A stretch of DNA of 64,000 nt from an uncultured Chloroflexia bacterium. GTDB lineage: Bacteria > Chloroflexota > Anaerolineae > Anaerolineales > UBA4823. The stretch covers positions 38,978 through 102,977 of the forward strand of contig CAVSBZ010000003.1 in the NCBI GenBank assembly GCA_963726315.1, written 5' to 3'. This document shows, piece after piece, positions 22,818-48,570 of this stretch. Numbering within the stretch: the first letter of the stretch is position 1; every line of letters begins with the position of its first letter. The notes beneath the pieces were generated by a model that worked only from the letters and a program-made list of their open reading frames with translations, was not told the DNA's origin and ran no database searches. A program made the translations under genes and the position numbers.

Positions 22818-22871
22818 TCTAGCCTCCTCATTGGGACCCCACCGGTCGACTTGACCTAGGTGGTTAGGTTC

Positions 22872-23975
22872 TCAGCTCTTGGTTAAAAATTCGCGCACCG
22901 TATCGACGGCCATACGGTTCTCTTCCTTGGTACCGATGGTGATGCGGAACCAGCCATCGGAGCCATATTTCTCGGTCTCTGGGCGGAAAATTAAGCCTTT
23001 CGATTCAGCATAAGCTACCACGTCTTTACCCTTTTTGCCTGTTGCACCACAATCAAACAGGATGTAGTTGGCCTTTGAAAGGAATACTACCAGGTTGGGA
23101 ACCTCGCTGAGCGCTTCTGTGATGAAATCCACCTCAGCATTGTTGAACTTCACTCGATAGTTTAGGGCTTCGGTATCCTCGAGTGACGCTAATGCCGCCC
23201 ACATCGGGATGGTACCCACATTCCAGGGCAATAACGCAGCGGATATTTGACTGATCACATCTTTATCACCCATGGCGTAGCCGAAGCGTAAACCAGCCAA
23301 ACCATAAGCTTTGGAAAGCGTACGTGTGATTAGCACGTTTTTATAGGTCTTGGTCAGCTCTACTTGCGACAGCTTTAATCCAGAGTACTCTACATATGCC
23401 TCATCAATCACAAAGGGGATACCTGTCTCAGCGATACGGACGAAATCCCCTGCATCCATGAAATTACCGGTTGGGTTGTTGGGATTAGCCACTGCAATGA
23501 TCTTGGTCTTTTCGGTAATGGCATTCAAGATTCCAGTCGCGTCGTAATGGAGGTACTTATCTTTATAAATCATCGGAACAGACACCATCTTGCCACCCAG
23601 GATGGTGCCACGCAGTTTATAAATGCCGAAGCAAGGTGTGTGCTGGATGACTTCTTCCCCAGGTGCCAGGAAGCAGCGGAAGATGTTATCGAACACCTCG
23701 CTGGAGCCATTTCCGAGCATAACATTCTCAGGACCATTTAAATGATTGATCTCAGCGATCTTACTGCGCACGATCAGTCCCTGATCTGGGTAACGATTAG
23801 CCATCTTGGCATATTTGATTAGCGCTTCCAACACCTTCTCGGAAGGCGGGTTAGGGTTCTCATTAGACATCATACGGTGGAGCTCAGGTTTTCGCCAGGC
23901 TAACTCAATGTGTCCCGAGACGTACATCGGAATCCCTTTTACCCAGGGTACAAAATAATCCTCTATCTTTTTCAT
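22872..23975 (-). CDS. Class I/II PLP aminotransferase, HisC/CobD-like
   Basis: 367 aa. Contains the TLSKAYGLAGLRFGY PLP-lysine motif typical of histidinol-phosphate aminotransferase-family enzymes. Confidence 0.85.
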   Translation of the reverse strand: MKKIEDYFVPWVKGIPMYVSGHIELAWRKPELHRMMSNENPNPPSEKVLEALIKYAKMANRYPDQGLIVRSKIAEINHLNGPENVMLGNGSSEVFDNIFRCFLAPGEEVIQHTPCFGIYKLRGTILGGKMVSVPMIYKDKYLHYDATGILNAITEKTKIIAVANPNNPTGNFMDAGDFVRIAETGIPFVIDEAYVEYSGLKLSQVELTKTYKNVLITRTLSKAYGLAGLRFGYAMGDKDVISQISAALLPWNVGTIPMWAALASLEDTEALNYRVKFNNAEVDFITEALSEVPNLVVFLSKANYILFDCGATGKKGKDVVAYAESKGLIFRPETEKYGSDGWFRITIGTKEENRMAVDTVREFLTKS

Positions 23976-24017
23976 ATCAATACTTAACTCCTCTGCAGTG
24001 AATGGTTATTCAAGTTA

Positions 24018-24048
24018 AAGAGTGATGGGGTTGTTACCCATCACTCTT
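24018..24048 (-). other. Perfect 12-bp hairpin between the aldolase and aminotransferase genes
   Basis: aagagtgatggg / cccatcactctt with a 7-nt loop. The U-tract on the minus strand is poor, so it may be an intercistronic processing or stability element rather than a full terminator. Confidence 0.4.
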
Positions 24049-24064
24049 GAATTCTTTCTCAGGC

Positions 24065-24940
24065 TCACACCTTGTCAGCGCTGCCGAGCATATCGATCCA
24101 ATGTCCTACCGCCTCACGAATGGCTTTCCTCACGGCTTCGTCGACTTTTCCAGGATCATATTCTTCACGGTGGGTGTTGATATAATCGTATTGGGCGTCG
24201 ATCATGGTGCGTTTAAGCTCGGTGGAAACGTTGAATTTCGCTCCGCCCATCTCGATCAACTTCTTGATGTAATCTTCTGGCAGACCTGTGCCACCATGGA
24301 CTACCAGGGGTGTTTTAATGGTCTTGCCGTTCAGTAATTGGTTGATCTTGCCCAGTCGCTCAAAATCTACCTTTGGGTTTTTCGTTTTGTAAACCCCATG
24401 AGCAGTACCAATGGCAGGCGCAAAGATATCCAGACCGGTCCGCTCGACAAACTCAACTGCTTGAACCGGATTTGCCAGCTGAGTTTCATCCTCAGCCACT
24501 TTTATCTGATCCTCCACCCCGCTTACCGTACCCAGCTCGCCCTCTACAGAAATCTTACCGAGCTTATGACAGTAATCGACAATTTCCTTTGTTTGACGGA
24601 TATTCTCCTCATACGCTTGCTTGGAGGCGTCAACCATGATATTCGTATAGCCAGCGTCAGCACACTTCTTACAGTGTTCGATATCCGTACAATGATCCAG
24701 GTGTAAACAAATCGGGATTGGTGCTGCAGCAGCGAGGGTGCGGTAAATTGCTACCAACACGTCGACGCCTAGAAACTTGGATGGTTTCACCGAGGTCTGA
24801 ATGATTAAGGGTGATTTCTTGGCGACTGCCGCTTCGATCACACCTTCCATTTGGTTTACGTCAGTGATATTAAAAGCACCAATGGCATATTTACCCTTGG
24901 CAGCTTCCACCATGATTTCTTTTGCGTTGACAATCGACAT
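24065..24940 (-). CDS. Class II ketose-bisphosphate aldolase (fructose/tagatose-1,6-bisphosphate aldolase family)
   Basis: 291 aa with the motifs LHLDHC, EGELG and VVHGGTG. Confidence 0.85.
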   Translation of the reverse strand: MSIVNAKEIMVEAAKGKYAIGAFNITDVNQMEGVIEAAVAKKSPLIIQTSVKPSKFLGVDVLVAIYRTLAAAAPIPICLHLDHCTDIEHCKKCADAGYTNIMVDASKQAYEENIRQTKEIVDYCHKLGKISVEGELGTVSGVEDQIKVAEDETQLANPVQAVEFVERTGLDIFAPAIGTAHGVYKTKNPKVDFERLGKINQLLNGKTIKTPLVVHGGTGLPEDYIKKLIEMGGAKFNVSTELKRTMIDAQYDYINTHREEYDPGKVDEAVRKAIREAVGHWIDMLGSADKV

Positions 24941-30155: not shown

Positions 30156-30229
30156 AATGTTGACTGAATGTCATTAAATAGTAGACTACGGGAATATTTT
30201 CAAGCAATTATAATAAAAAAGGCAAAATC

Positions 30230-30258
30230 TTGCAAATTTCTTCATATTCTTTTATAAT
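30230..30258 (+). promoter_or_regulatory. Candidate sigma70 promoter of the DeoR gene (TTGCAA-N17-TATAAT)
   Basis: Hexamers and the 17-nt spacer were read directly. It sits in the 160-bp divergent intergenic region, which also holds three TTATAAT(A/T)AA-like repeats. Confidence 0.45.
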
Positions 30259-30315: not shown

Positions 30316-31110
30316 ATGAGTAAATCTCTCATTCCAGCTCAACGGCGAGAGCGAATCCAGGAATATCTGGCAATCCATAAAATCGTCCGGATGGACGAAT
30401 TGTATAAGATGCTGGATACCTCTGAAGCGACTGTGAGACGGGATTTGGAATGGTTGGAACGCGAAGGAGTTTTAGAACGAACTCATGGGGGGGCAATTCT
30501 TAATCAACGGATGACTCTCGAGCCCGAATATGTCCAAAGAGCATCCTTAAACCCTGAAGAAAAACATCTAATTGGAGAACTGGCGGCCTCACTAATCGGT
30601 GATGGTGAAGTTGTATTCATCAATAGCGGCACGACGACTGCTCAGGTGATTCACCACATCCGAGGGAATGTTGGCATCATTGTGTTCACCAATAATCTGG
30701 CTGCAGTGCTGGAGGTCGGCGATACCGGGTTCAAATCCTATGTACTGGGTGGTGAGTTCCAGCCTCATTCCAACTCGGTTGCCGGTCGCTTTGGTCTTGA
30801 AAATCTGCGCCAGGTATATGCCAACAAGGCGATCCTGGGCGTCGACGGCATCAGTTTGATCCACGGCTGTACCGTGCCTTCGAATGCCGAAGCTGAAATG
30901 ATGAAATTGATGATTGAGCGCACGAAAGGGGAAATAATGATTGTGGCTGATCACACCAAATGGGGTGTGGTTTCAAATTTTCAAATCGCAAGCATCGATG
31001 AGCTCGACAAGCTGATCACGGATGCTCAAATAGATCCCACCACCCTTGATACTTTGGCTGAACATTCCGTGCAGATACATATTGCCTCAGCAAGCCAGGT
31101 AAAAGTTTAG
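30316..31110 (+). CDS. DeoR-family transcriptional regulator
   Basis: 264 aa. N-terminal wHTH (RRERIQEYL...SEATVRRDLEWLEREG) and a C-terminal DeoR sugar-phosphate-sensor domain. Confidence 0.85.
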   Translation: MSKSLIPAQRRERIQEYLAIHKIVRMDELYKMLDTSEATVRRDLEWLEREGVLERTHGGAILNQRMTLEPEYVQRASLNPEEKHLIGELAASLIGDGEVVFINSGTTTAQVIHHIRGNVGIIVFTNNLAAVLEVGDTGFKSYVLGGEFQPHSNSVAGRFGLENLRQVYANKAILGVDGISLIHGCTVPSNAEAEMMKLMIERTKGEIMIVADHTKWGVVSNFQIASIDELDKLITDAQIDPTTLDTLAEHSVQIHIASASQVKV

Positions 31111-34243: not shown

Positions 34244-35143
34244 ATGCAGAGCATCGAAGAGATCATCGCCAGAATAGAAGATTGGAAAGGAAGCAATATT
34301 TCGATTCAGCCGATGACGGGAGGCCTGACCAACTCGAATTATAAGGTGACCGTGGATGGGGCACCTTTCTTTGTCCGCGTGCCTGGTGAGGGCACTGAAT
34401 TATTGGCAATAGACCGGAACAACGAATATTTTAATACCGATACGGCTGCAGCGACTGGGGTAGGTCCGAAAGTTCTTTATTATTTACCTGATTTACAGGT
34501 CATGGTTCTGGAATATCTCGAGGGCACAACCATGTCAAACGCTCTACTTAATGCAACAGGCATGCCTGCGAATATTGCCACGGCGATCAGGCGCCTGCAT
34601 GGCGGCTCTCGTTTTCTTACTGATTTCAATATGTTTCGATTGACCGAGTATTACCTTGAGATCTGTAAAAAGTACACTATTACCATCCCGGAAGGCTATC
34701 CAGTGAGACTTCATACGGTCAAGCAGATCGAGCAGGCAATGGCGGTCCATCCACTGCCTGCTGTGCCCTGTAATAATGATTTGCTGGCTGAGAATTATAT
34801 CTACGATGGAAATTCCATGCGCATCATTGATTATGAATATAGTGGGAACAATGATCCATGTTTTGAGCTGGGAAACACCTGCCAGGAATTACAATATAAC
34901 GAAGAAAGCATCGCTGAGGTGTGTGAAGCCTATTTTGACTACCGCAGGGTGGACATGATCTCTCGCATGAAGCTCTATATGATCATGTCTGATGTTGGCT
35001 GGGCGCTTTGGGCAGCGATCCAGGCGAAGATATCCAAGATTAATTATAATTTTTGGGGATGGGCGGTGGAACGCTGGGGAAGAGCAATTGAAAAAATGGA
35101 TTCGCCTGCATTCCCGCAATGGCTTGAAGATGTTCAAAATTGA
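34244..35143 (+). CDS. Choline/ethanolamine-kinase-like phosphotransferase, copy B
   Basis: Contains GGLTNSNY, CNNDLLAENYI and IIDYEYSGNND. 299 aa. Confidence 0.8.
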   Translation: MQSIEEIIARIEDWKGSNISIQPMTGGLTNSNYKVTVDGAPFFVRVPGEGTELLAIDRNNEYFNTDTAAATGVGPKVLYYLPDLQVMVLEYLEGTTMSNALLNATGMPANIATAIRRLHGGSRFLTDFNMFRLTEYYLEICKKYTITIPEGYPVRLHTVKQIEQAMAVHPLPAVPCNNDLLAENYIYDGNSMRIIDYEYSGNNDPCFELGNTCQELQYNEESIAEVCEAYFDYRRVDMISRMKLYMIMSDVGWALWAAIQAKISKINYNFWGWAVERWGRAIEKMDSPAFPQWLEDVQN

Positions 35144-35165: not shown

Positions 35166-37592
35166 ATGAAAGATCAAGCACGCGTCGTAATTGTGGGCGG
35201 AGGAATTGTCGGAGCAAATGTTGCTTATCATCTAGCACTGCTGGGTTGGACGGATGTGGTTCTGTGTGAAAAAGGTGAGATTGCAAGTGGCGAGTCATCG
35301 CATGCCGCCGGGCTGGTGACCCAGTTTGCCACTTCGCAAACCTTAATGCAATTCCGCAAATACAGCATTGAGTTGTACAGTGGGCTACGCCTTTTTGATT
35401 ACGTGGGTAGTTTGCGCGTGGCTTCATCGAAGGACCAGCTTACTGAGATGCACCGCAGCGTAAGCCGTGCTAAAGGGATTGGAATGGATGCGGAGGTCAT
35501 CTCGCCCGAGGAAGCGATCTCGATCATGCCCCAGCTGAGCAAAAAAGACCTATATGGGGCAATTTACCTGCCCCGAGATGGACAGCTGGACCCGTATACC
35601 ACCACAACCACGATGGTTCGCCTGGCCAAGGAGATGGGCGTAGAGGTGAAAACCTGTGTACGCGTGACCGGGTTCGAGCTCTCTTCCAAGGGTGAGATAA
35701 AGCGAGTGCTCACTAACCAGGGGGACATCCATACAGAAATCGTGGTCAATGCAGCCGGTATGTGGGCACCCCAGGTGGCTGCCATGGCTGGGGTGCACAT
35801 CCCGACCACACCGGTGGACCATCAGCACATTGCATTGAAAGCTGTGACCGGAAATGAGTTCCCGCCCTCCACCCCCTGCCTGCGTGACCCGGATAACCTG
35901 GTATATATGCGCCAGGAAGCAGGCGGACTGGTGATCGGTGGCTATGAGCCCAACCCACTGGCACGCTGGATTGATGGGGTACCCTGGGAGCACGGGGATA
36001 CCACCTTACCGGCTGATTATGACCGTTTCGAACAACTTCTGGAAGGTGCTATCCGGCGCATCCCATTCCTTGACCATGCGGGCATCATCACCCTGGTCTG
36101 TCACCCAGGTGCTTATACCCCCGACAGCCAACCCATGCTAGGGCCGGTGGCAGGAGTACGCGGTATGTGGATTGCGGCGGGAATGTCATTGAATGGCTAT
36201 GGCGGAGCAGGTGGGATTGGCAAGCTGATGGCAGAGTGGATTGTTGAAGGCGAACCTTCACTGGATGTGTATGCCTATAAAGCGACGCGGTTCGGGAATT
36301 ATTATGCCAACCCGGAATACGCCGCGGAGCGCACCCGCGAGGGGGTCAAGTACTATTACCGCTTACGCTTCCCCAATGATGAGAATGAGTGGGCCCGCCC
36401 CCACCGGGTAAGCCCGGTGCACTACCGCTTGCAGGAAATGGGTGCGGTGTTTGGTGAGAAGTTTGGCTGGGAGCGGGTCAATTACTTTGAGCCTGATAAA
36501 CCCTGGCGCAGGATGGGCGCCGACCAGCGTGCCTGGGGTTGGAAAAAGCCCCCCTATTTTGAGCGGCTTGGACAGGAACACCAGGCTACACGTGAGCGCG
36601 TGACATTGTTTGATATGACCTCATTTGGAAAGATCGAGGTGAGCGGTGCGGGAGCCCTGGCGCTATTGCAGCGGGTGGCAGATAATAATATCGATAAACC
36701 GGTGGGTTCGACAATTTACACTCAATTCTTAAATACCAACGGTGGTGTAGAAGCGGACGTGACTGTCGCCCGCCTCGGAACAGAGCGGTTCTGGGTGATC
36801 ACCGGTTCGGCTTTCATCGGGAATGAGCTGGCATGGCTGCGGATGAGTCAACAGGAGCAGGATGACTCGGTGAGCATTCGCGATATCACCCAGGAACTTG
36901 GTTGCCTGGCACTATGGGGACCCAAAGCGCGTTTCGTCTTGCAGAAGCTGACAACGGACGATATCTCGAATGAAGGTCTGCCCTACTTGCACGCCGGAAT
37001 AATCCACATTAATGGAGTTTCCATTTGGGCGCAGCGTGTCAGCTACGTAGGAGAATTAGGATGGGAATTATACATACCAAATGAACGCTGCGAGCTGGTT
37101 TGGGATGCCATTCTGAATGCGGGTGCGGAATTTGGTATCGAGGTGGGCGGTTATAAGGTGCTGGACTCCCTGCGCCTGGAAAAGGGTTACCGCTACTACA
37201 CCGCCGATGTCACCCAGCTTGAGACTCCTTATGAGGCGGGTCTTGGTTTCTGCGTGGATCTCAACAAGGAAGATTTTATCGGAAAACAAGCTTTGCTGAA
37301 ACAGAAGCAGGACGGAGTAAATCGCAAGCTGTGCACCCTGGTGCTTGATGAGGCGTCTTACACTCAAATCTATGGCGGCGAGGCAGTCTATTACCAGGGG
37401 AAGGTCATCGCCCGGGTACGCAGTGGGGGGTATGGATTTACAGTGCAGAAAAATATTCTGTATGCCTATTTGCCGATTGAGCTGGCGAAGACAGGCACAG
37501 ACCTCGAGATTGACTTGATCGAAGGTAAATTCCCAGCAAAGGTCACCCAGGCAGTATTATATGACCCGAAGGGTGAGAACTTGCGGATTTAA
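35166..37592 (+). CDS. FAD-dependent oxidoreductase + GcvT domain (DMGDH/SARDH-like), copy B
   Basis: 808 aa with VVIVGGGIVGANV, ESSHAAGL and RLEKGYRYY. It is collinear with copy A. Confidence 0.85.
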   Translation: MKDQARVVIVGGGIVGANVAYHLALLGWTDVVLCEKGEIASGESSHAAGLVTQFATSQTLMQFRKYSIELYSGLRLFDYVGSLRVASSKDQLTEMHRSVSRAKGIGMDAEVISPEEAISIMPQLSKKDLYGAIYLPRDGQLDPYTTTTTMVRLAKEMGVEVKTCVRVTGFELSSKGEIKRVLTNQGDIHTEIVVNAAGMWAPQVAAMAGVHIPTTPVDHQHIALKAVTGNEFPPSTPCLRDPDNLVYMRQEAGGLVIGGYEPNPLARWIDGVPWEHGDTTLPADYDRFEQLLEGAIRRIPFLDHAGIITLVCHPGAYTPDSQPMLGPVAGVRGMWIAAGMSLNGYGGAGGIGKLMAEWIVEGEPSLDVYAYKATRFGNYYANPEYAAERTREGVKYYYRLRFPNDENEWARPHRVSPVHYRLQEMGAVFGEKFGWERVNYFEPDKPWRRMGADQRAWGWKKPPYFERLGQEHQATRERVTLFDMTSFGKIEVSGAGALALLQRVADNNIDKPVGSTIYTQFLNTNGGVEADVTVARLGTERFWVITGSAFIGNELAWLRMSQQEQDDSVSIRDITQELGCLALWGPKARFVLQKLTTDDISNEGLPYLHAGIIHINGVSIWAQRVSYVGELGWELYIPNERCELVWDAILNAGAEFGIEVGGYKVLDSLRLEKGYRYYTADVTQLETPYEAGLGFCVDLNKEDFIGKQALLKQKQDGVNRKLCTLVLDEASYTQIYGGEAVYYQGKVIARVRSGGYGFTVQKNILYAYLPIELAKTGTDLEIDLIEGKFPAKVTQAVLYDPKGENLRI

Positions 37593-37609: not shown

Positions 37610-38890
37610 TTGTGCGTGAAGAAGAGTCATCAGGTGCGTATGGACAAGCATGAAATAACAAGCATAAAAAATTTATTAAATTCTCGTGAACCGAACCACG
37701 ACTTGCCGAGACCGTTTTATCACAATGAAATCCTGTATCAAGCAGAGATGGAAGCCATCTGGAGGCAGGGATGGCTATTTGCCGGTCACTCATGCCAGAT
37801 CCCCAACCCGGGCGATTACTTTGTTTATGCCGTGGAAGATGATTCGGTGATCGTGGTGCGCGCTGATGACGGTCAGATCAACGCCCTTTACAACGTCTGC
37901 CGGCACCGGGGAATGGTGATCTGCCAGGTACCTGAAGGAAATATCAAGCGCTTTATTTGCCCTTATCACCAATGGACCTATGACCGCAGTGGGCACTTGC
38001 TGCTCCAGCATGGCATGCAGGAAGGTCTGGATAAGACCCAGCTCGGAATGCATCCTCTCCATGCCCGTGAGGTTGAGGGGCTGATCTTCATCAGCCTTGC
38101 CCAAGAACCGCTCGATTTCGATCCGGTTAAGTCGGCGATCGCCCTGGTTGCGAAACCTCAAAGACTGAGCCGAGGCAGGGTAGCTAAGATTATGGATTTT
38201 AATATCGAATCTAATTGGAAGCTGGTGTGGGAAAATAACCGTGAATGTATGCATTGTAACGTAAACCACCCGCAATATATCAAAGCTAACTTCGACCATT
38301 ACAACGCGGATGACACAACACCTCGAGTCGCGGAGAGGTTGGAAAGGGTCACAGCTCGTCTTGAAGCGAAACTGGCCGCCCAAGGCATGTCTCTGCGCGC
38401 AGAAACAGGCATGACCGAATTTCCTGACCCAGATCACGGGCTCTGGTATGCTGCCAACCGCACTCCTAATGAGCAGGGTTATGTTAGCGAAACCATGGAT
38501 GGCAAGCAGGTGGCACCCCTGATGGGTGATTACACCGACCCTGAAGTGGGCACGTTGCGTATCCGCAGCCTGCCAAACTTTTGGATTCATGCCAGCTGTG
38601 ACCATAGTGTGGCGGTGCGTCTCACCCCGAACGGACTCACCCACACCCACATCCGCATGATCTGGTTGGTGGCTGGGGAAGCGCAGGAAGGTCGGGATTA
38701 CGATTTGACTGAACTGCTTCCGTTCTGGCAATTAACCGCGGAGCAGGATTGGAAAATTTGCACCAACCAACAAAAGGGTGTCAGCTCACACGCATACACA
38801 CCGGGACCATTATCGACTTATAAGGAGTACAACCTTGACCGGTTCCTTCGTTGGTACCTGCAGGAAATGAAAGCGTACATCGAGGCATGA
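37610..38890 (+). CDS. Rieske [2Fe-2S] non-heme-iron oxygenase alpha subunit, GbcA/Stc2-like (N-demethylase-type)
   Basis: Rieske motif CRHRG...CPYHQW. Catalytic-domain motif NWKLVWENNRECMHCNVNHPQY. Start is uncertain among TTG 37610, GTG 37616 (better RBS spacing) and ATG 37640. Confidence 0.8.
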   Translation: MCVKKSHQVRMDKHEITSIKNLLNSREPNHDLPRPFYHNEILYQAEMEAIWRQGWLFAGHSCQIPNPGDYFVYAVEDDSVIVVRADDGQINALYNVCRHRGMVICQVPEGNIKRFICPYHQWTYDRSGHLLLQHGMQEGLDKTQLGMHPLHAREVEGLIFISLAQEPLDFDPVKSAIALVAKPQRLSRGRVAKIMDFNIESNWKLVWENNRECMHCNVNHPQYIKANFDHYNADDTTPRVAERLERVTARLEAKLAAQGMSLRAETGMTEFPDPDHGLWYAANRTPNEQGYVSETMDGKQVAPLMGDYTDPEVGTLRIRSLPNFWIHASCDHSVAVRLTPNGLTHTHIRMIWLVAGEAQEGRDYDLTELLPFWQLTAEQDWKICTNQQKGVSSHAYTPGPLSTYKEYNLDRFLRWYLQEMKAYIEA

Positions 38891-39807
38891 GCCAGCCTCA
38901 ACCGGTCTACGTTGGTTTTGGCATGCTCACCCCTGTGGCAATCATGGTGGTTGATCAGTTGCCACAACATAATTGCGGGGCATTGGTTAAGGAGGTAAGT
39001 GAATTCGTCTTTGACGATGCAGCCATCATCGCCTGCTTGCTACGCCAATGGGATATGCCGACTGCCATGATCGGTACTACTTTGGGGGACGACCCGCGCG
39101 GCCACCTGTTGGCCGAGCAGCTGGGAGAATGGGGGGTGGATGGAGAGGTACGTTTTTCAAAGGAAATAAAAACCCCCTGGGAAGTGGACGTCTCTGATGA
39201 AACCGGGGCACGCACTTATTTCTGGCAGAGGGAACCGAAAGTGTTAGCCACCCTCGATACAGCTGACTTATCGCTGGTTCGAGAGGCGCGGATGTTATAC
39301 GTGGATTGGTATGATGGTGACCACATCCTGCGCGCCATGGATGAGGCACTTAGGTACAACGTGCCGGTATTCCTGAATTTTGAACATGGACATGCAGACC
39401 CTGAACTATTGAAGCGTTATGCGAGTCGGGCACTGATCTGCCAGGCGACCACAGATGCCGCTCAACACGGGAAGGTATCCCCGTTGGAGGTGACGAGGAA
39501 ACTGTTGGATAATGGTGTGCAGACAGCTTTAATTACAATGGCGGAAGAAGGCAGCCTGGTTGCACAGGGCGAGCAAGTCATCCGTGTCAAAGCTCCCCAT
39601 GTTCATGTCGTGGATGGATGTGGAGCGGGTGCTACTTTTTCAGCTGGTTTCATCTATGGGCACCTGAGGGGTTGGATGCTTGAAGAATCGGTCCGCTTTG
39701 CGACCGCTGCAGCATCCTTAAAAGTGACCCACCCTGGACTGAAAATGTCCACCATTCCAGAGATCCAGGAACTAGCTGGTCGTCTCGCCGTTGAGCATTT
39801 GGGTTAG
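38886..39807 (+). CDS. PfkB (ribokinase-fold) family protein with an atypical active-site motif
   Basis: ATG overlaps the Rieske stop (ATGA). The C-terminal motif reads DGCGAGATF instead of the canonical DTxGAGDxF. Confidence 0.7.
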
Positions 39808-39835
39808 CTGATCATCATGTAACCAGGAGAGACCC

Positions 39836-41287
39836 TTGATCAATTTTGCCACCCTTCTATCGCAGGAACAGGTTGAACGCACACACGCAGCCTCGCTTGA
39901 AATCCTTGAAAGCGTGGGTCTGCTGGTGCGAAATGAGCAAGCACGTGCGATCTTCAAACATGCGGGCTGCCGTGTAGATTCAGAGACACACAATGTAAAA
40001 TTGCCAACCGCGGTGGTCGATGAGTTCCGCCAGATGCTACCAACGACCTTCACCTTTTGTGGTCGCGATCCACAGTTTGACCGGACAATTCCGCAAGATG
40101 GTCCGGTGATTGTCACTGGCAGCTCGGCTCCGGATGTAATCGACTTGGTGACCGGTCGCCCAAGACGCGCCCGATCAGACGATATCGCCCGTATTGCCCA
40201 CCTGATCCAGGAGCTGCCGGCTTATGACATCTTTTCGATCTCAACCCTGGCAGATGACGCGCCGCCTGGGCAGTTCACCCTGGCTCGCCTGTATCCATCG
40301 CTGAAGTATTGCCTTAAGCCGGTGCGCAGTACCACCAAGGACATGGCGGACATACAGGCGATCCTGCATTTTCTATACACCATTGCAGGAAGTGAAGCCG
40401 CCTATCGCGATCACCCTTTTGTGACCCATCACTATTGTCCGGTCGTCTCTCCTCTAACGATGGATCAGCTCTCCACTGAAGCGGTCATTTTTTTCTGCCA
40501 GATGGGGCTGCCAGTCTATCCGAGTATCGTTCCTAATGCTGGTCTGACATCACCCATGTCCATGGCAGGTACCCTTGCGCAGGGCAATGCTGAATTCCTT
40601 GCCATAGCAGTGTTGATGCAGATGGTGCGTGAAGGCACACCCACGATCTACTCCACCTTGCCAACCGTCGCCGATATGCGCACGGGCGCGTATGCCTCGG
40701 GTGGCATTGAGTGCGGCATGCTGCACATGGCTTTTGCTCAAATGGCGCGCTTCTACAACGTGCCTTGTGGCGGATATATCGGATTATCCAATGCCAAGGT
40801 CAACGACGCCCAGTCTGGATACGAGACCGGAATGTCCACTGTGGCCAGCGTCTTGGGGGGTGCGGACATGCTTAATATGGGCGGTCTGCTGGATGCCCTC
40901 AAAGCTTTTGATTTTGCCAAAGCGGTAATTGACGATGAGATAGCCCAAATGCTCAAGCGTATGAAACGCGGTATTCTCTTTGGAGAAGAGGAACTTGCGC
41001 TGGAAGTGATTTCACAAGTAAAACCAGGGGGAAACTTCATGCTCAGCCCGCATACCAAAAAACGAATGAAGACCGAAGCTGTGCTCACCCGGATATCTGA
41101 ACGCGAAGCTCGCGAATCATGGGAAAAGCGCGGCTCCCTGGATACAAACGCCCGCGCTATGCAGCGAGTGCGTGAGATACTGGCGCGTGAAAGTATGTCG
41201 ATATTCGACGAAGAGGTTGAAGGTCGCATCCGCAAGCAGTTCAGAGATTTAATCCCTGGAAAATTGGAAATACCTCCAGGTTTATAG
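39836..41287 (+). CDS. MttB-superfamily methyltransferase, non-pyrrolysine type
   Basis: 483 aa. The N-terminus (LSQEQVERTHAASLEILESVGLLVRNEQARAIFKHAGCRVD) is typical of the family. There is no in-frame TAG. Confidence 0.8.
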   Translation: MINFATLLSQEQVERTHAASLEILESVGLLVRNEQARAIFKHAGCRVDSETHNVKLPTAVVDEFRQMLPTTFTFCGRDPQFDRTIPQDGPVIVTGSSAPDVIDLVTGRPRRARSDDIARIAHLIQELPAYDIFSISTLADDAPPGQFTLARLYPSLKYCLKPVRSTTKDMADIQAILHFLYTIAGSEAAYRDHPFVTHHYCPVVSPLTMDQLSTEAVIFFCQMGLPVYPSIVPNAGLTSPMSMAGTLAQGNAEFLAIAVLMQMVREGTPTIYSTLPTVADMRTGAYASGGIECGMLHMAFAQMARFYNVPCGGYIGLSNAKVNDAQSGYETGMSTVASVLGGADMLNMGGLLDALKAFDFAKAVIDDEIAQMLKRMKRGILFGEEELALEVISQVKPGGNFMLSPHTKKRMKTEAVLTRISEREARESWEKRGSLDTNARAMQRVREILARESMSIFDEEVEGRIRKQFRDLIPGKLEIPPGL

Positions 41288-41338: not shown

Positions 41339-42277
41339 ATGAAGTTATATTTCGCGACGGATGTGCACGGGTCGGAGATTTGTTGGAAGAAGTTCCTGGC
41401 GGCAAGCAAGTTTTACGAGGTGGATACCCTCGTCCTGGGGGGTGATATGACCGGTAAAGCCATCGTCCCAATCATTGCCCAGGGTGATGACGAATATAAG
41501 GTGACCCTGTTGGAGCAAGTGAGCATGCTGCACGGCAAAGAGGAAGTTGACAAGATGGTGCAGACCATCCAGAACCGCGGATATTATCCGTATTTGACAA
41601 ATCCAGACGAAGTTCAAGAGATTGTTTCCTCTCCAGGCAAGATGGACGAGCTATTTATGGACGAAGTGCTTACAACCGTTCAACGCTGGATGGAATACGC
41701 AGATGCGAAGTTGGAGGGGACCGGTATTCGCTGCATCGTCTGCCCGGGCAACGATGATGTCTTCGAGATTGACGCCGTGATCGCAGCCTCCAAGTGCGTG
41801 CGCAGCCTGGAAGGTCAGGTTATTGAGCTGGATGAATACCACGAGATGGCAAATTCAGGCTGGTCCAACCCGACCCCTTGGAACACTCATCGCGAGGAAC
41901 CAGAGGAGGCATTGCTCAAGCGCCTGGAATCAGTGATCAGCCAGGTCAAAAATCCCTCCCAGGCAGTCTTCAACTTTCACCCCCCGCCATACGGGAGTGG
42001 TCTGGATGAAGCCCCTGAGCTGACCAAAGACCTTCGCCAAGCGTATGCTGGCCGGTCCATGATACCGGTTGGTAGCAAAGCCGTCATGGCTATGATTGAT
42101 AAGTATCAGCCTTTGCTTGGGCTCCACGGTCATATCCATGAAGGTAAGGGTACGCGCAAGTATAAGAAGACGTTGTGCGTCAACCCGGGCAGTATGTACG
42201 AACAAGGGATGTTGTCCGGTGCGGTCATCGAACTAAAACCCCAAAAGGTGGGCAATTATCTGCTCACAACGGGGTAA
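41339..42277 (+). CDS. Calcineurin-like metallophosphoesterase, copy 2
   Basis: Motifs ATDVHGSE, GGDMTGK, CPGNDD and LHGHIHEG. It is collinear with copy 1. Confidence 0.75.
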   Translation: MKLYFATDVHGSEICWKKFLAASKFYEVDTLVLGGDMTGKAIVPIIAQGDDEYKVTLLEQVSMLHGKEEVDKMVQTIQNRGYYPYLTNPDEVQEIVSSPGKMDELFMDEVLTTVQRWMEYADAKLEGTGIRCIVCPGNDDVFEIDAVIAASKCVRSLEGQVIELDEYHEMANSGWSNPTPWNTHREEPEEALLKRLESVISQVKNPSQAVFNFHPPPYGSGLDEAPELTKDLRQAYAGRSMIPVGSKAVMAMIDKYQPLLGLHGHIHEGKGTRKYKKTLCVNPGSMYEQGMLSGAVIELKPQKVGNYLLTTG

Positions 42278-42433: not shown

Positions 42434-44320
42434 ATGAGTGACGTTTCTTTATTCGTTCGCAAAGCAAGTGGCTTGGTGAGAGCCTGGTCAGTGTTCGATG
42501 CGTTCATCTACGCCACTTTCTCGATCAACTTGATCACCCTCGGGCTTTTTATCTTCTCATATTGTTATTACCTCCAGGGCAGTCTGATCAGCGGGGTTGT
42601 AATTGGAGCTATCTTCACCATCTTTGAAGTGATTGTATACGCCAGTCTGATTTCCGCCATGCCGCGTGCAGGGGGTGACTACGTCTGGCAAAGCCGCATA
42701 TTAGGTCGAATGATCGGTTTTGTGCTGGCGGTAACTGGCTGGTGGTTCATCCTATGGCTGTGGACTCCACTTTATGGTCAGATGCTGACTTATGAGGTTT
42801 ACACGCCTCTTCTGGCGATCGCAGGATTCAAAGATGCTGCTTTATGGTTTACGACAACATCGCAGGGACAGTTCGTTGGTATGCTGTCGGTGTGCCTGAT
42901 CGTATTCATTTATATTACCGTTGGAATGAAATGGTACGCCCGAGTGCAGAAATTCTGTTTTTGGGGTGGGTTAGTAGGCTTGGCGATTGTTTTCGGGCTG
43001 CTGCTATTTGGCAACCATGATACATTCGTGACTAATTACAATGCCATGGCTCCCACCTTTGGCGCTACCGGCGGGGATGTGTATTCAGCGACTATGCAGG
43101 CAGGTGAAGACGCTGGCACTGTGGCAGGTCCGCTCTTCCCTCTGGCGATTGGTGCCAGCCTTTTGCTCGTTCCAATGTTGACTTTCTTCAATCTGTGGCC
43201 AAATTGGGGTTCCACCCTATATGGCGAGGTGCGTGGCGCATCGGATTACAAGCGCAACTTCCTGGGCATGTTCATGGCAATTATCATAACCATGGTGGGT
43301 GCTGTGGTTTTGTTCTTGCTGATTGCTAAAACGATCGGTTGGGATTTTTATAACCATTCCAATGGTGCCTTTTGGAACTGGGGCTTTGGCTATACTACCA
43401 CACCCCCACCACTGCCCATATGGCCTTACCCGGCTCTATTCGCCACCTTCATGGTGAAGAGCCCGGCGTTGATGTTCATCGTCGTGCTGCTGATGAGCCT
43501 GTGGTGGTTTGGCTGGTCGGGGACGCTCTTCCTGAGCTCAACACGCGTGATCTTTGCAGCCGCGATCGACCGCATGCTGCCAGAGTGGGTATCCAAGATT
43601 GAACCACGCACGAAGACACCTATATTCGCCCTCTTGCTTATGGTTATTCCGGCGGCAATCATCTCCTACCTTTATGCATTCAAGATATTTAATTTCAACA
43701 CCCTGGCTCTTGATGCAACAGTGGTGATTGCCATTACTTTCCTTGGTTCTACAATTGCAGGCATCATTATGCCGTGGAAAGCAAAAGATGTGTATGATGG
43801 TTCTCCGATTGCCAAGTATAAAGTTCCTTCCTGGTTGGGGTGGATCGTCACCATCATTTATGCTGGCTTTTCTTTATACCTCATTTATATCTCGCTGAGA
43901 TATGGCTATGATATCGTGAGCGGGATCGGAACTCTTGACCCAAACACAGCAACCTGGATTGTGGTGATCCTTCTGTCGATCCTGACGGTCGTCAATGCGG
44001 CGGTCTTGATCTGGATCTTTTTCCAGGTTGTCAAGGGTTTATTAAGCAGCAAAGCTATGCCACTCGTTACATTGGCGGGTTTGATCTTCCTGGGTTTCCT
44101 GGACTGGTTGCTGGTGAAGTGGTTTTGGGATCCGAATGTCCTCCCCGAGTCATTACCAACCGTCGGAACCTATGGCATCGGCTGGTCTAACGTGAACTCG
44201 ATGATCTTTATGCTGTTGAACTATATCGTGGCAGCTGTGATCTATTTCGGTTTCAGCGCTTACCGCCGCCGACAGGGCATCCAGATCGAAAAAGTCTATA
44301 AGGAGATCCCGGTCGAGTAA
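42434..44320 (+). CDS. APC-superfamily permease, copy 2
   Basis: 628 aa. Contains PRAGGDYVWQSR. Shares the N-terminal RKASGLVR motif with copy 1. Confidence 0.8.
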   Translation: MSDVSLFVRKASGLVRAWSVFDAFIYATFSINLITLGLFIFSYCYYLQGSLISGVVIGAIFTIFEVIVYASLISAMPRAGGDYVWQSRILGRMIGFVLAVTGWWFILWLWTPLYGQMLTYEVYTPLLAIAGFKDAALWFTTTSQGQFVGMLSVCLIVFIYITVGMKWYARVQKFCFWGGLVGLAIVFGLLLFGNHDTFVTNYNAMAPTFGATGGDVYSATMQAGEDAGTVAGPLFPLAIGASLLLVPMLTFFNLWPNWGSTLYGEVRGASDYKRNFLGMFMAIIITMVGAVVLFLLIAKTIGWDFYNHSNGAFWNWGFGYTTTPPPLPIWPYPALFATFMVKSPALMFIVVLLMSLWWFGWSGTLFLSSTRVIFAAAIDRMLPEWVSKIEPRTKTPIFALLLMVIPAAIISYLYAFKIFNFNTLALDATVVIAITFLGSTIAGIIMPWKAKDVYDGSPIAKYKVPSWLGWIVTIIYAGFSLYLIYISLRYGYDIVSGIGTLDPNTATWIVVILLSILTVVNAAVLIWIFFQVVKGLLSSKAMPLVTLAGLIFLGFLDWLLVKWFWDPNVLPESLPTVGTYGIGWSNVNSMIFMLLNYIVAAVIYFGFSAYRRRQGIQIEKVYKEIPVE

Positions 44321-44606: not shown

Positions 44607-45795
44607 ATGCTTACCAGCAAGAACGCGTTTCAAAATAATTACATTGATTTTGGTCATCACTTTCGTGCTTGCCGGCTTGCGGTGGCGCACCTACACCTAA
44701 TGTTGCTGAGGGTTACACGGGCACAGTCGTTAAAAGTGTGCCGCAGGATCTCGTTGACGCCTGTAAAAAAGAAGGCATGGTTACGATCATCGCCACCCCA
44801 CCAGACTGGGCGAATTATGGCGAGATTTTTGCCGATTTCCAGGCAACAACCGGAGTGGGGATCAATTCCCTGGATCCGAACGCCGGTTCAGCGGATGAGC
44901 TCGCTGCCATTGAAGCCAATAAGAACAATAAAGGTCCACAGGCTCCAGACATTGTGGATGTAGGTTACGCCTACGGAGCAACCGGTATTGCGGCTGGTGA
45001 CTACATGCCCTATAGAGTATCCACCTGGGATAAAATCCCTGACACTCTATTAGGTATTCCTGCCAAAGATCCGAACGGTTTTTGGACGGGTGGTTACTAC
45101 GGCGTCATGGCCTTTTTAGTGAATACCGCAGTAGTGCAGAATGTCCCCCAGAATTGGACTAGACCTGCTCAAACCCGAGTATAAAGGACAGGTTGCCTTG
45201 TCAGGGCCTGCTACCACTTCAAACCAGGCTATCCAGACAATTTATGCATCTGGTTTAGCTAACGGCGGCTCATTGGATAATGCCCAACCGGGCCTCGACT
45301 TCTTCAATGAATTGAATAAGGCAGGAAACTTCGTACCTGTAGTTGCCAAAGTGGGTACTGTTGCACAGGGTGCAACTCCCATCGTTCCATTCTGGGACTA
45401 TCTGGCTTTTGGTTATCGAGACTCATTTGCCGGGAATCCACCGGTCCAGGTTGATCTACCCCTCCCCGACCATTGCCAGCATGTATGTGCAGGCGATCAG
45501 CGCCTATGCACCTCATCCCAATTGTGCCAAAGTATGGATGGAAATCCTCCATTCAGACGAGGGTCAGATGGCATGGATGAAGGGTTATGCCCATGGCGTT
45601 CAGCAAGCCGACTTGGAATCACGCGGTGTCATTCCCGCCGACCTGGCAGCTAAATTACCTGCCTCAAGTTCCTATGCCTCCGCAGTTGCCCCCAGCCCTG
45701 CCCAATTAGATGCCGCACTGGCATTGATCAAAGCAGGCTGGATGACCACCGTTGGTGTGGCTCAATCCACCGCAACACCGGAACCGACACCATAA
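44607..45795 (+). pseudogene. ABC transporter solute-binding lipoprotein, interrupted by four apparent +1 frameshifts
   Basis: The coding signal moves through frames 0>1>2>0>1 at about 44622, 44677, 45161 and 45456. Stitching restores a lipoprotein signal (MLTSK-TRFKIITLILVITFVLAG-CGGAP) and a continuous binding-protein sequence. Confidence 0.7.
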
Positions 45796-45802
45796 ATTAG
45801 TT

Positions 45803-46706
45803 ATGGCCGTGATAGATAGTGAAACGCGGGACGCGCCTCAGGCGCGTCCCGCAAGAACCAAAATGTCGTGGGCATGGCTCGGGGTAGTGCCCTTCTTTAT
45901 ATTTACATTTGCTTTTCTTCTTTATCCATCTTCGACCATCGTCATTAAGCAGTTTTCAGGATTTGATCACAAAATCCTTTACTTTCCAAAATATAAATAC
46001 GCTGCTCCACTCTCAGTACCTGATGCAGTCTTATTGGATCAGCATCAAGCTCAGCTTGATTACTGCTATCGGCGGTGGGATATTCGGTTTCCTGTTAGCC
46101 TATTCCGCCATTCGCGGCAGCTTACCCAGGTTCATGGCTGCCAGTCTGATGACTTTCTCTGGAGTCGCTTCCAACTTTGCCGGGGTACCGCTGGCATTTG
46201 CTTTCATCGCTCTGCTGAGTCCCACCGGTTTATTAATTGGCTGGATGAGAACTCTGGGATATAACCCTTACTTCCATGGGTTTACGCTATACACCTTTAC
46301 CGGGTTAGCGATTGTTTATATGTATTTCCAATTTCCGTTGATGGTTTTGGTGATCGCGCCAGCGATTGAAGGTATGCGGCGTGAATGGCTGGAAGCATCC
46401 GAGAATTTGGGTGCCAGCTCTTTCCAATATTGGCGCTACGTTGCTTTACCCATCCTGGGTCCTGCCTTAGCAGGTACGATGATCCTGCTTTTTGGGAATG
46501 CCTTCGGTGCCTTTGCCACAGCTCAAGCTCTTACCGGTGGTCAGATAAACCTGGTTACGATCGTGATTGGCTCAGAACTGCGCGGAGATGTATTGGGTAA
46601 TCAGGGTGTCGGATATGCCTTGTCATTGGGGATGGTGGTGGTGATGGCTTTGGCAATTATTGGTTATACCGTCCTGCAACGGCGGACGGAGAGGTGGCTG
46701 CGATGA
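45803..46706 (+). pseudogene. ABC transporter permease, one apparent +1 frameshift (about 45950)
   Basis: The N-terminus (MAVIDSE...WLGVVPFFIFTFAFLLYPSSTIVIK) is in frame 2. The rest (SFQDLITKSF...EAA-loop...RRTERWLR) is in frame 0. Confidence 0.7.
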
Positions 46707-47487
46707 AGAACAGGGGTAAACTATGGGCATGGTTTATCATGTTCCTTGGCATTCTTTATTTCTTCCTTGCCGCTGGTAGCAACCTTTATTTTTTCATTCA
46801 AAGCCAGGCTTGGTGAGCTGAGTTTTCAAGCATATACAAATATCTTTCGAAGCCCCACATTTTTATATAATTTCGGTGCTTCGGTAGTTTGGGCAATCTT
46901 CACAATCATCGTTGGAATCTTGATATTTGTTCCGACCGCGTTTGTCATCCGCTTGAGAGTACCAAAAGCCCGCAGCCCAGTCGAGTTCATCACCTTGCTG
47001 CCATTTGTCATTCCACCGATTGTGTATGTCTTCGGTCTGGTACGCACTTACAGCCAGCCTCCGCTTTCTTATCGTCAATAGTCCTTTATTGCTCATTGCT
47101 GGATATACGATATTATCCATGCCTTATATGTACCGCTCGGTCGACACCGGATTACGCTCTATTGACGTACGCACATTAACCGAAGCAGCTCAAAGCCTTG
47201 GAGCCGGTTGGGGGACGATTTTATTCAGCGTCATCCTACCCAACATCCGTACCGCTATCTTGAGTGGTGCGTTTCTGAGTTTCGCCATCGTAATTGGCGA
47301 ATTAATTCTTGCCCAATATCTGGTCAAGCCAGCCTTTGCCCCTTATATGGCTTATGTGATGCAGCAAAAAGCGTATGAACCAGCTGCCATGGCCATCGTC
47401 AGTTTTGCTCTTACCTGGATTGCCATGGGGATCATTCAGATGGTCGGTCGCGGCAGAGGTGCAGCGCAGGTTGGTGGTGGACATTAA
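46703..47487 (+). pseudogene. ABC transporter permease, two apparent +1 frameshifts (about 46769 and about 47055)
   Basis: The start ATG overlaps the upstream stop (ATGA). The coding signal moves through frames 2>0>1. The last segment carries the EAA-like loop (TEAAQSLGAGWGTILFSVILP). Confidence 0.7.
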
Positions 47488-47508: not shown

Positions 47509-48570
47509 ATGATACATTTATCCCTTAAAAACATCTCCAAGCAATTTGCAAATAACACCGTGGTAAAAGACTTTAACCTGGACGTGGATCGGGGCGAGTT
47601 CGTCTCGTTCCTTGGACCTTCGGGTTGTGGAAAAACAACCACCTTGCGCATGATCGCCGGTTTTGAAATCCCCACAACGGGTACGGTTACGCTGGAAGGC
47701 AACGATATAACCAACAAGGCTCCCAACCAACGTAACGTGGGCATGGTCTTCCAGGCATATGCCCTGTTCCCGAATATGACCGTGGCTGGGAATATTGGTT
47801 TCGGTCTAAAAATCCGCGGGGAGAAGAAGGAAATTATCCAGGAGACGGTGAAGGAAATGCTGGCGCTGATCCATCTTGAGCAAAGGGGAGACAGCTACCC
47901 TTACCAGCTTTCAGGTGGGCAACAGCAACGTGTGGCGCTGGCCCGTGCCCTGGCCATTCACCCCGAAGTTCTTTTGCTTGACGAGCCCCTTTCAGCATTG
48001 GATGCAAAAATCCGCGTTCAGCTGCGCGCGGAAATTCGCGCGATCCAGAAAAAACTGGGTATCACCGCCATCTATGTTACGCATGACCAGGAAGAAGCCC
48101 TCTCAATCTCTGACCGCATTGTGGTCATGTTCGATGGAAAGATCGAACAGGTGGGCTCTCCGTTTGAGATTTATAACTTCCCCACAACCACTTTTGTGGC
48201 TGGTTTTGTGGGCACATTGAACACCACCACCGCTGAAGTGGTCGATCCGGTCGCCCGCTTGCTCCGTATCGATGGTGTCACTCTGCAGGCTGCTGAGGGG
48301 TTGGATGACAAACAAAAAGGCGACAAGGTTACCATCGCCATCCGCCCAGAGCGCTTCAATTTTGTTGCCCAGGAAATGAAGGCTAATCTCCTGGATTGTA
48401 TCGTTGAAAATATCACCTTTCTCGGCTCTGTCGTCCGCATCCAGGTGTCGGTTGGCAGCAACCGTTTCTATATGGATACGTTCAACAATCCATTTCTTGA
48501 GCTGCCTAAGATTGGTGATAAAGACCAGGTGACCTGCTCACGTGAGGCAGTCCTGGTGCTCAGGCAGTAA
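47509..48570 (+). CDS. ABC transporter ATP-binding protein (PotA/MalK-like with a C-terminal TOBE-type domain), intact
   Basis: Walker A GPSGCGKTT, signature LSGGQQQRV and Walker B LLLDEPLS. The 353-aa ORF is uninterrupted. Confidence 0.9.
   Translation: MIHLSLKNISKQFANNTVVKDFNLDVDRGEFVSFLGPSGCGKTTTLRMIAGFEIPTTGTVTLEGNDITNKAPNQRNVGMVFQAYALFPNMTVAGNIGFGLKIRGEKKEIIQETVKEMLALIHLEQRGDSYPYQLSGGQQQRVALARALAIHPEVLLLDEPLSALDAKIRVQLRAEIRAIQKKLGITAIYVTHDQEEALSISDRIVVMFDGKIEQVGSPFEIYNFPTTTFVAGFVGTLNTTTAEVVDPVARLLRIDGVTLQAAEGLDDKQKGDKVTIAIRPERFNFVAQEMKANLLDCIVENITFLGSVVRIQVSVGSNRFYMDTFNNPFLELPKIGDKDQVTCSREAVLVLRQ

Follow-up and report, generated by a model that had tools for sequence, protein, structure and literature searches.

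Bacteria that demethylate quaternary amines can carry two kinds of entry enzyme. Phaeobacter inhibens encodes both a cobalamin-independent Rieske demethylase (GbcAB) and a cobalamin-dependent demethylase of the MttB family (MtgBCD) and the supply of cobalamin determines which of them it uses on glycine betaine (preprint 10.64898/2025.12.19.695462). MttB-family systems are functional in aerobes (PMC12478193), and in Ruegeria pomeroyi (MtgBCD; PMC12478193), as in Phaeobacter, the MttB enzyme operates in an O2-respiring bacterium and is followed by dimethylglycine-type flavoenzymes. In the choline:tetrahydrofolate (THF) system of Eubacterium limosum (MthK/MthB/MthC/MthA), MthB needs the kinase MthK and uses phosphocholine (PMC12155760); no other MttB-family enzyme is known to require one. 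Here, we describe a locus in which genes for a Rieske oxygenase and a nonpyrrolysine MttB-family methyltransferase lie together at positions 37610-41287 (plus strand) of a 64,000-nt stretch of DNA, hereafter the window. The window is part of contig C3 (118,004 bp) of a metagenome-assembled genome (G000; completeness, 94.9%) of a soil or wetland bacterium of the Anaerolineae (Chloroflexota).

The locus shares with Phaeobacter the presence of both demethylase types in one organism, and with Phaeobacter and Ruegeria an MttB enzyme in a bacterium equipped to respire O2, followed by flavoenzymes related to dimethylglycine dehydrogenase (DMGDH). Unlike in those bacteria, both genes sit in one operon, 1 kb apart, without a GbcB gene or a cobalamin riboswitch; the residues that bind betaine are missing, and the host is a corrinoid-auxotrophic member of the Chloroflexota rather than a B12-producing alphaproteobacterium. 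The locus resembles the E. limosum system in linking an MttB-superfamily enzyme to a choline-kinase-type kinase, in its probably carboxylate-free substrate, and in sister-clade operons that encode MttB, RamA, MtxC, and MtxA, three of them with a kinase-like gene next door. The E. limosum pathway differs in stopping at dimethylaminoethanol, without Rieske or DMGDH-like enzymes, and the corrinoid partners are unlinked here. We likened the window MttB and kinase to MthB and MthK by gene linkage and description, and the kinase was placed in the LicA/choline-kinase family. The initial annotation of this DNA had called the combination of an oxygenase with an MttB-family enzyme unusual. The combination itself is less so, given the O2 oxidases of the host, the MttB systems of aerobes, and the Phaeobacter precedent; what stands is the direct operonic juxtaposition, with a nonbetaine substrate and no reductase, which we did not find in the full-text literature searched. 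We favor, with moderate confidence, the reading that the first methyl group of a quaternary amine, of choline type and probably phosphorylated, can be removed either by the Rieske enzyme with O2 or by the MttB enzyme with B12.

Rieske and MttB-family genes in one conserved operon

The stretch 37610-41287 contains three plus-strand genes, encoding a Rieske oxygenase alpha subunit, a PfkB-fold protein, and an MttB-family methyltransferase. Pfam matches and motifs, and for the MttB gene the lack of an in-frame stop, agree with the initial annotation on all three. The trio forms part of a longer plus-strand run that, by Pfam, encodes a DeoR regulator, a metallophosphoesterase, an APC permease, a choline-kinase-family kinase, a DMGDH-like flavoenzyme, the trio itself, and then another metallophosphoesterase and APC permease. 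Gaps around the three genes are 17 to 51 nt long, the probable ATG start of the PfkB gene (38887) overlaps the stop codon of the Rieske gene, and we saw no terminator-like site above chance between 35166 and 41339. Based on these features, cotranscription of the trio is likely.

The arrangement is conserved. We collected 46 loci with a Rieske ortholog of at least 60% identity, and an MttB ortholog follows within 2.6 kb in every one of the 31 loci that have at least 3 kb of downstream sequence, with the PfkB gene between the two in 24 of them. On the other side, the gene immediately before the Rieske gene is DMGDH-like in 38 of the 41 loci whose upstream sequence is long enough to judge. The pairing of Rieske and MttB genes is thus beyond chance.

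The Rieske gene (37610..38890, plus strand; PF00355 and PF00848), whose likely true start is GTG 37616 or ATG 37640, encodes a group V (quaternary-amine) nonheme-iron oxygenase of the Stc2/GbcA-like, alpha-subunit-only type. The C-x-H...C-x-x-H ligands of the [2Fe-2S] cluster are present (CRHRG and CPYHQW) and conserved among orthologs, and the protein also contains the motif ENNRECMHCNVNHP. At the mononuclear-iron site, E-C-M-H-C-N-V-N-H and the Asp of AEQDW supply the 2-His-1-carboxylate ligands, the bridging Glu, and the Cys-x-x-Cys pair typical of group V quaternary-amine oxygenases (PMC10952381); the E-C-x-H-C-x3-H and Asp motifs are kept in the orthologs. Stc2 and GbcA share these ligands, residues, and the alpha-only fold. 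The best PDB matches, all full length, are 3n0q, 4qup, and 3vca (Stc2), with E values of ∼1e-75; the match to CntA is much weaker (3e-27). The protein scores 362.5 bits against the NCBIfam GbcA equivalog model (NF058607), below its cutoff of 670 bits, and further differs from Stc2 and GbcA in that no cognate reductase was found. Based on these comparisons, we infer a group V oxygenase of the N-demethylase type, and with its metal ligands conserved and Stc2-type N-demethylases as its nearest solved relatives, the protein looks functional.

This protein is the only Ring_hydroxyl_A match in the host genome. Its orthologs form a clade seen only in the Anaerolineae (65 to 86% identity in more than 40 assemblies) and in marine Planctomycetaceae (53 to 59%), beyond which identity drops to 37% or less. 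In the planctomycetes, the neighboring genes encode the beta and alpha subunits of electron transfer flavoprotein (ETF), a CCG-type Fe-S oxidoreductase, a DUF5690 protein, and a DAO flavoprotein; these loci contain no reductase, kinase, or MttB gene. Two independent metagenome proteins (P0244 and P0245) are fusions of a SIS (phosphosugar-binding) domain with a Rieske part 39% identical to the window protein, a hint that some relatives act on phosphorylated or sugar-like substrates.

The intervening gene (open reading frame 38851-39807, plus strand, probable start ATG 38887) encodes a PfkB-fold protein (PF00294, 92 bits) in which the catalytic GAGD motif of ribokinase-family kinases is replaced by GAGA (VVDGCGAGATFSAGF). 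All of the ∼40 orthologs aligned across the motif have the same Asp-to-Ala change, and operons that lack the Rieske gene have the PfkB gene too. The protein is therefore a conserved, probably noncanonical, member of the pathway.

Corrinoid partners of the MttB-family enzyme

The third gene (39836..41287, plus strand) encodes a nonpyrrolysine member of the MttB superfamily, probably a quaternary amine:corrinoid protein Co-methyltransferase, with a PF06253 match of 311.7 bits over residues 5 to 466. The frame is open for 483 residues, with no in-frame stop or UAG, and the protein scores 357.6 bits against the model for MttB proper (TIGR02369; trimethylamine, pyrrolysine), below the cutoff of 525. 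The best PDB match is the nonpyrrolysine MtgB of Desulfitobacterium hafniense (9yce and 2qne; E ∼3e-64, full length).

The initial annotation had recognized none of the usual partner genes in the 64 kb and had proposed that they may be encoded elsewhere. Whole-genome scans with five domain families, namely B12-binding (PF02310), RACo/RamA (PF14574), Pterin_bind (PF00809), NAD_binding_1 (PF00175), and Fer2 (PF00111), extend its first observation to the whole of C3, on which none of the five has a match. Its proposal holds for MttB; for the Rieske enzyme, no GbcB/CntB-type reductase was found genome-wide or in relatives. Elsewhere, the genome encodes 12 MttB homologs, ∼13 corrinoid proteins of 210 to 245 residues, two MtgA-like Pterin_bind proteins in addition to one that is FolP-like, and several RamA-type activases; the annotation had allowed that partners found elsewhere and coexpressed would make the arrangement ordinary, and in gene content, the MttB half is so. 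Candidate partners include corrinoid proteins encoded at C2:202205, C5:193597, and C5:1883333, a RamA at C7:943496, and MtgA-like proteins at C7:942746 and C5:191297. Five of the 12 host MttB genes, including four in tandem on contig C7, have no adjoining corrinoid gene, and in E. limosum, one corrinoid protein serves several MttB paralogs (PMC12478193; PMC12155760).

Relatives provide the same components in cis. Of 120 other genomes of the order, 19 encode orthologs of the window MttB (54 to 80% identity), and none of these 19 has the Rieske gene. One operon (G101) has the order DeoR, DMGDH, PfkB, MtxC, RamA, MttB, and those of six other genomes combine MttB, RamA, MtxC, a homocysteine-methyltransferase domain, DUF1638, methylenetetrahydrofolate reductase (MTHFR), and MtxA. 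Within the fetched stretch, a choline-kinase-like gene, a DMGDH-like gene, or both lie next to three of these six MttB-RamA-MtxC-MtxA operons. In a quick maximum-likelihood tree, the window MttB and these orthologs form one clade (Shimodaira-Hasegawa-like approximate likelihood ratio test [SH-aLRT] support, 100), apart from the 11 other host paralogs. Furthermore, RamA and small corrinoid proteins were found in all 20 other cluster-bearing genomes searched, several times on the same megabase contig. RamA was considered as a discriminating marker and set aside; it also occurs in 83 of 121 genomes of the order, which is consistent with the pattern without being specific to it. All characterized MttB-superfamily members use a corrinoid protein (PMC12155760, PMC13080624). 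Because candidate partners are encoded in trans in the host genome and in cis beside same-clade orthologs, the conclusion that the window MttB is an ordinary corrinoid-dependent methyltransferase is well supported. For annotation in general, an MttB gene without neighboring corrinoid genes is not evidence for new chemistry.

Several observations on related genes arose during these searches. In a sister subclade (for example, L094:2835-7724 of G095, with the same layout in L093, L095, L097, and L102), the operon includes MTHFR with a C-terminal partner and a pterin methyltransferase; this MttB/RamA/corrinoid/homocysteine-methyltransferase/MTHFR module resembles the split methionine synthase/MtgBCDE module of aerobic alphaproteobacteria. 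One host MttB paralog (C5:1886733-1888136), which is part of a tandem array adjoining a corrinoid protein gene, has a single in-frame TAG and may be a pseudogene, an assembly error, or a sign of unassembled pyl genes. Pyrrolysine use is unsupported in the assembly because no PylD gene was found in the host genome. A RamA/RACo paralog (C5:1633929-1634666), like its counterparts in many Anaerolineales genomes, has an in-frame stop within the RACo_C_ter match, mostly TAA and sometimes TGA or TAG. Such repeated occurrence points to a conserved split, or to a site of recoding, more than to random damage.

Electron supply to the Rieske oxygenase

No reductase of the GbcB/CntB type (FNR-like plus [2Fe-2S]) was found in the host genome, which is 94.9% complete, or next to any of ∼50 orthologs of the oxygenase; this extends to the genome the absence that the initial annotation reported for the 64 kb. 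Three host proteins have an NAD_binding_1 domain: two are PyrK-like, with hydrogenase- or sulfite-reductase-like surroundings, and the third, a 266-residue protein without an Fe-S domain, is the only plain FNR-like protein in the genome and adjoins a gene with a molybdopterin-oxidoreductase domain. Fer2 domains are confined to RamA, xanthine-dehydrogenase-type proteins, and a NuoG-like protein. As a positive control, proteobacterial relatives (∼30% identity) carry an FNR-like reductase directly beside the oxygenase; no such gene lies beside the Rieske ortholog in loci L001 to L060. Queried against the host genome, the proteobacterial reductases matched only the weak FNR-like protein, and against 39 related genomes they matched nothing with a ferredoxin domain.

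Other routes to a partner were followed and rejected. A phylogenetic profile with a GbcB-like query returned weak FNR-like matches in 8 of 20 Rieske-bearing genomes and 0 of 19 Rieske-less genomes, none with a ferredoxin domain; the other 12 Rieske-bearing genomes had no match at all. A 116-residue Rieske ferredoxin lies in the SUF operon, unlinked to the cluster, and the 266-residue FNR-like protein, beside its molybdoenzyme domain gene, is likewise unlinked. Fusions of a reductase with a Rieske oxygenase exist only at 37% identity. A GcvT-Rieske fusion (P0243; 49% identity) looks like a gene-call artifact because its middle and C-terminal stretches are Arg rich and unalignable, resembling out-of-frame translation; it indicates no more than that, in another lineage, the Rieske gene has a GcvT-type gene ahead of it.

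The missing reductase is real, yet such a lack is not uncommon in this class of enzyme. In plants and cyanobacteria, Rieske oxygenases use a general ferredoxin, and a generic ferredoxin or flavoprotein is a candidate donor here. A second host Rieske oxygenase, of the VanA/PaO type (331 residues; C5:605568-606563), likewise has no adjoining reductase gene. One shared, unrecognized electron donor may serve both host oxygenases. A bolder idea, which we consider doubtful, is that the window enzyme draws its two electrons from the adjoining flavoprotein demethylase (the DMGDH-like enzyme here; DAO and ETF in the planctomycetes) instead of from an NAD(P)H reductase, and so forms a reductase-less, cobalamin-independent bypass. 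If true, the second demethylation would pay for the first, a means of powering a Rieske oxygenase that would be new, and the operon would be the first to pair O2-dependent and B12-dependent isoenzymes for a phosphorylated quaternary amine.

Candidate substrate

In D. hafniense MtgB, glycine betaine is bound by Y97, R312, H348, and F356 (PMC13080624). All four residues differ in the window MttB, which has S96, G312, N347, and L355, and the same S/G/N/L combination occurs in 44 of 44 MttB orthologs, with or without a Rieske gene. Glycine betaine is therefore probably not the substrate of this enzyme.

The gene context points to a phosphorylated compound. As with MthB, a choline-kinase-family gene (34244..35143) lies on the MttB strand, with no terminator-like site above chance downstream of it, and such a gene also occurs in three sister-clade operons. 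The encoded kinase matches PF01633 (E, 9e-24), PDB 3dxq (3.6e-42), and the LicA choline kinase (4r77; 6.6e-19). Other neighbors that fit phosphorylated intermediates are the phosphoesterases and a HisC-like aminotransferase, of a family that acts on amino-alcohol phosphates; some versions of the operon have a phosphate-transporter-family gene beside MttB. Based on the choline-kinase-family genes, the MthB/MthK precedent, and these neighbors, phosphocholine or a close analog would be the best guess for the substrate.

On the minus strand at 22053-24940, the HisC-like aminotransferase (261 bits; cutoff, 276.55), a class II ketose-bisphosphate aldolase, and a HAD-IA phosphatase follow a second DMGDH-like gene. 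We speculate that these enzymes could convert phosphoethanolamine to phosphoglycolaldehyde, condense it with dihydroxyacetone phosphate to a pentulose bisphosphate, and dephosphorylate the product.

Proposed oxygen- and cobalamin-dependent routes and alternative explanations

The Rieske gene never occurs without an MttB ortholog in the Anaerolineae, and the reverse is not true. Three genomes of the same genus lack the Rieske gene, and two of these have the MttB operon; in one same-genus genome (G069), the DMGDH gene is followed directly by PfkB, with no Rieske gene and no room for a remnant. The DMGDH-like gene is retained in Rieske-less operons. Rieske-bearing and Rieske-less operons interleave in the MttB tree, where well-supported branches force at least four changes, and the Rieske gene has been gained or lost several times in this operon. 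The Rieske oxygenase is thus an optional addition to a pathway that can run in its absence, which fits a parallel route for a step already performed.

The host encodes both a heme-copper oxidase and a cytochrome bd oxidase, and exposure to oxygen is therefore expected. CbiC is absent from the host and nine related genomes (10 searched), and CobS is absent from the host. The sole cobalamin riboswitch in the genome (C5:364190-364341) precedes genes for a 537-residue protein with a weak match to a squalene-hopene-cyclase C-terminal repeat, an energy-coupling factor (ECF) S-component, and a CbiQ-type T-component. With neither CbiC nor CobS and with the riboswitch ahead of an ECF-type transporter, the host must import finished corrinoids for its many MttB systems, and it looks like an organism with a high demand for corrinoids and no source of them but uptake.

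Under the favored reading, one conserved catabolic operon of the Anaerolineales would strip the N-methyl groups from a choline-type quaternary amine, likely phosphocholine-like. The methyl group would move via MttB to the Co(I) form of a corrinoid protein whose gene lies elsewhere in the host genome, and from there to THF by the action of an MtgA-like pterin methyltransferase; a RamA-type activase would serve to reduce the cofactor again. The Rieske enzyme would perform the same first demethylation with O2, releasing formaldehyde by a cobalamin-independent route; because the host cannot make corrinoids, a B12-independent first step would be useful. Two DMGDH-like flavoenzymes would then remove the remaining methyl groups onto THF.

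A number of observations weigh against this reading. Both the sharing of a substrate by the two enzymes and its identity are drawn from genomic context, and the planctomycete orthologs, which have no kinase beside them, imply that the Rieske substrate need not be phosphorylated. Heme-copper oxidase is no more common in Rieske-bearing genomes (15 of 20) than in Rieske-less genomes (14 of 19), and we rejected an oxygen-respiration profile as an explanation for the presence of the gene. Gating of the Rieske gene by a cobalamin riboswitch was likewise rejected since the window has none, and no separate promoter or riboswitch distinguishes the Rieske gene from MttB. The lack of a GbcB/CntB-type reductase and the molybdoenzyme-linked setting of the only plain FNR-like protein, both described above, belong here as well. 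Finally, the placement of C3 in this bin is not certain, given its length of 118 kb and its lower GC content (45.7%, versus 49 to 52% in the three largest contigs). Because of this, the statement that cluster and partners share one genome rests partly on the relatives that have both on one large contig.

The competing explanation that we take most seriously, although we consider it somewhat unlikely, is that the two enzymes act on different substrates or steps, with MttB working on the main substrate and the Rieske oxygenase on a second quaternary amine or on a tertiary intermediate. The second amine would enter via the other permease/phosphoesterase/kinase module. In favor of this view, phosphoesterase, APC permease, kinase, and DMGDH-like genes all occur twice at the locus, the planctomycete orthologs manage without MttB or a kinase, and Stc2 takes off two methyl groups successively (PMC10952381). 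Yet in the Anaerolineae, the Rieske gene never parts from its MttB ortholog (31 of 31 loci), the presence of the module MPE1-APC1-ChoK_a does not depend on that of the Rieske gene, and the closest Rieske relatives act on quaternary amines. A remnant gene, or an enzyme rendered inoperative for want of its reductase, would fit the lack of a canonical reductase in the host and its relatives and the dispensability of the gene in many lineages. This we regard as very unlikely for a gene with an intact frame, all metal ligands, 65 to 86% identity across more than 40 species, which is the range of its neighbors, and a precedent in the plant and cyanobacterial enzymes, which use a general ferredoxin.

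The remaining two explanations assign different chemistry to one of the enzymes. A CntA-like role for the Rieske protein, as a C-N lyase or a hydroxylase, would mean that trimethylamine is set free or that the carbon skeleton is hydroxylated. CntA and the window protein are both members of group V and have the Cys-x-x-Cys motif in common (PMC10952381), and the host MttB paralog with an in-frame TAG recalls trimethylamine-specific MttB genes. However, the protein is far closer to Stc2/GbcA than to CntA, both in its PDB matches and in its 362-bit score against the GbcA model, a pyrrolysine trimethylamine methyltransferase is unsupported with no PylD gene found, and the constant DMGDH-like neighbor needs a dimethyl or monomethyl amine; we therefore judge this role quite improbable. 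Least probable of all, to the point of near dismissal, is the suggestion in the initial annotation that MttB dispenses with a corrinoid and transfers methyl groups directly to THF, perhaps via the neighboring GcvT domains. The adjoining GcvT-domain proteins and the absence of corrinoid protein, MtgA, and RamA genes from the window and from C3 would suit it. Against it stand the same-clade orthologs, identical at the four pocket positions and encoded beside MtxC, RamA, and MtxA; the RamA and small corrinoid proteins of all 20 cluster-bearing genomes searched; and the corrinoid dependence of every characterized member of the superfamily (PMC12155760, PMC13080624).

Wider locus and host genome

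The plus-strand operon is headed by the DeoR-family regulator gene (30316..31110; HTH_DeoR and DeoRC by Pfam), which is conserved in that position, and the best promoter-like sites lie in the divergent gap at 30207-30258. The DMGDH-like flavoenzyme gene (35166..37592, plus strand; DAO, FAO_M, GcvT, and GcvT_C domains by Pfam) is directly 5' of the Rieske gene. Downstream of MttB lie a metallophosphoesterase gene (41339-42277, plus strand) and an APC-family permease gene (42434-44320, plus strand), both assigned by Pfam and kept there in most loci; as a sequence query, the phosphoesterase matched nothing in the PDB. The divergent minus-strand operon encodes a protein of no assigned family, a CBS-domain protein, the second kinase, the second DMGDH-like enzyme, the class II aldolase, the HisC-like aminotransferase, the HAD phosphatase, and a NUDIX protein. 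The locus as a whole thus contains two genes each for a phosphoesterase, an APC permease, a kinase, and a DMGDH-like enzyme.

Between the second APC permease gene and an ABC ATPase gene, the window contains many short, overlapping open reading frames (110 to 265 residues) in different frames (44607-47487). The ATPase gene itself (47509-48570) is intact, and in relatives the same ∼3.2-kb interval precedes it. The cluster may sit on an accessory island, or the binning of C3 may be imperfect.

Implications

This well-conserved clade of Rieske oxygenases without a recognizable reductase poses a concrete biochemical question. The operon suggests that Anaerolineales can remove all methyl groups of a choline-type compound by an undescribed route. 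With two entry enzymes, one needing O2 and the other imported B12, it would carry the GbcAB/MtgBCD switch beyond the marine alphaproteobacteria in which it was recently found, into a further phylum and onto a different substrate. Soils, peat, and groundwater all contain Anaerolineales in abundance. Through such an operon, the turnover of methylated amines in wetlands, with their C1 units and, indirectly, methane precursors, would be tied to the supply of both O2 and B12.

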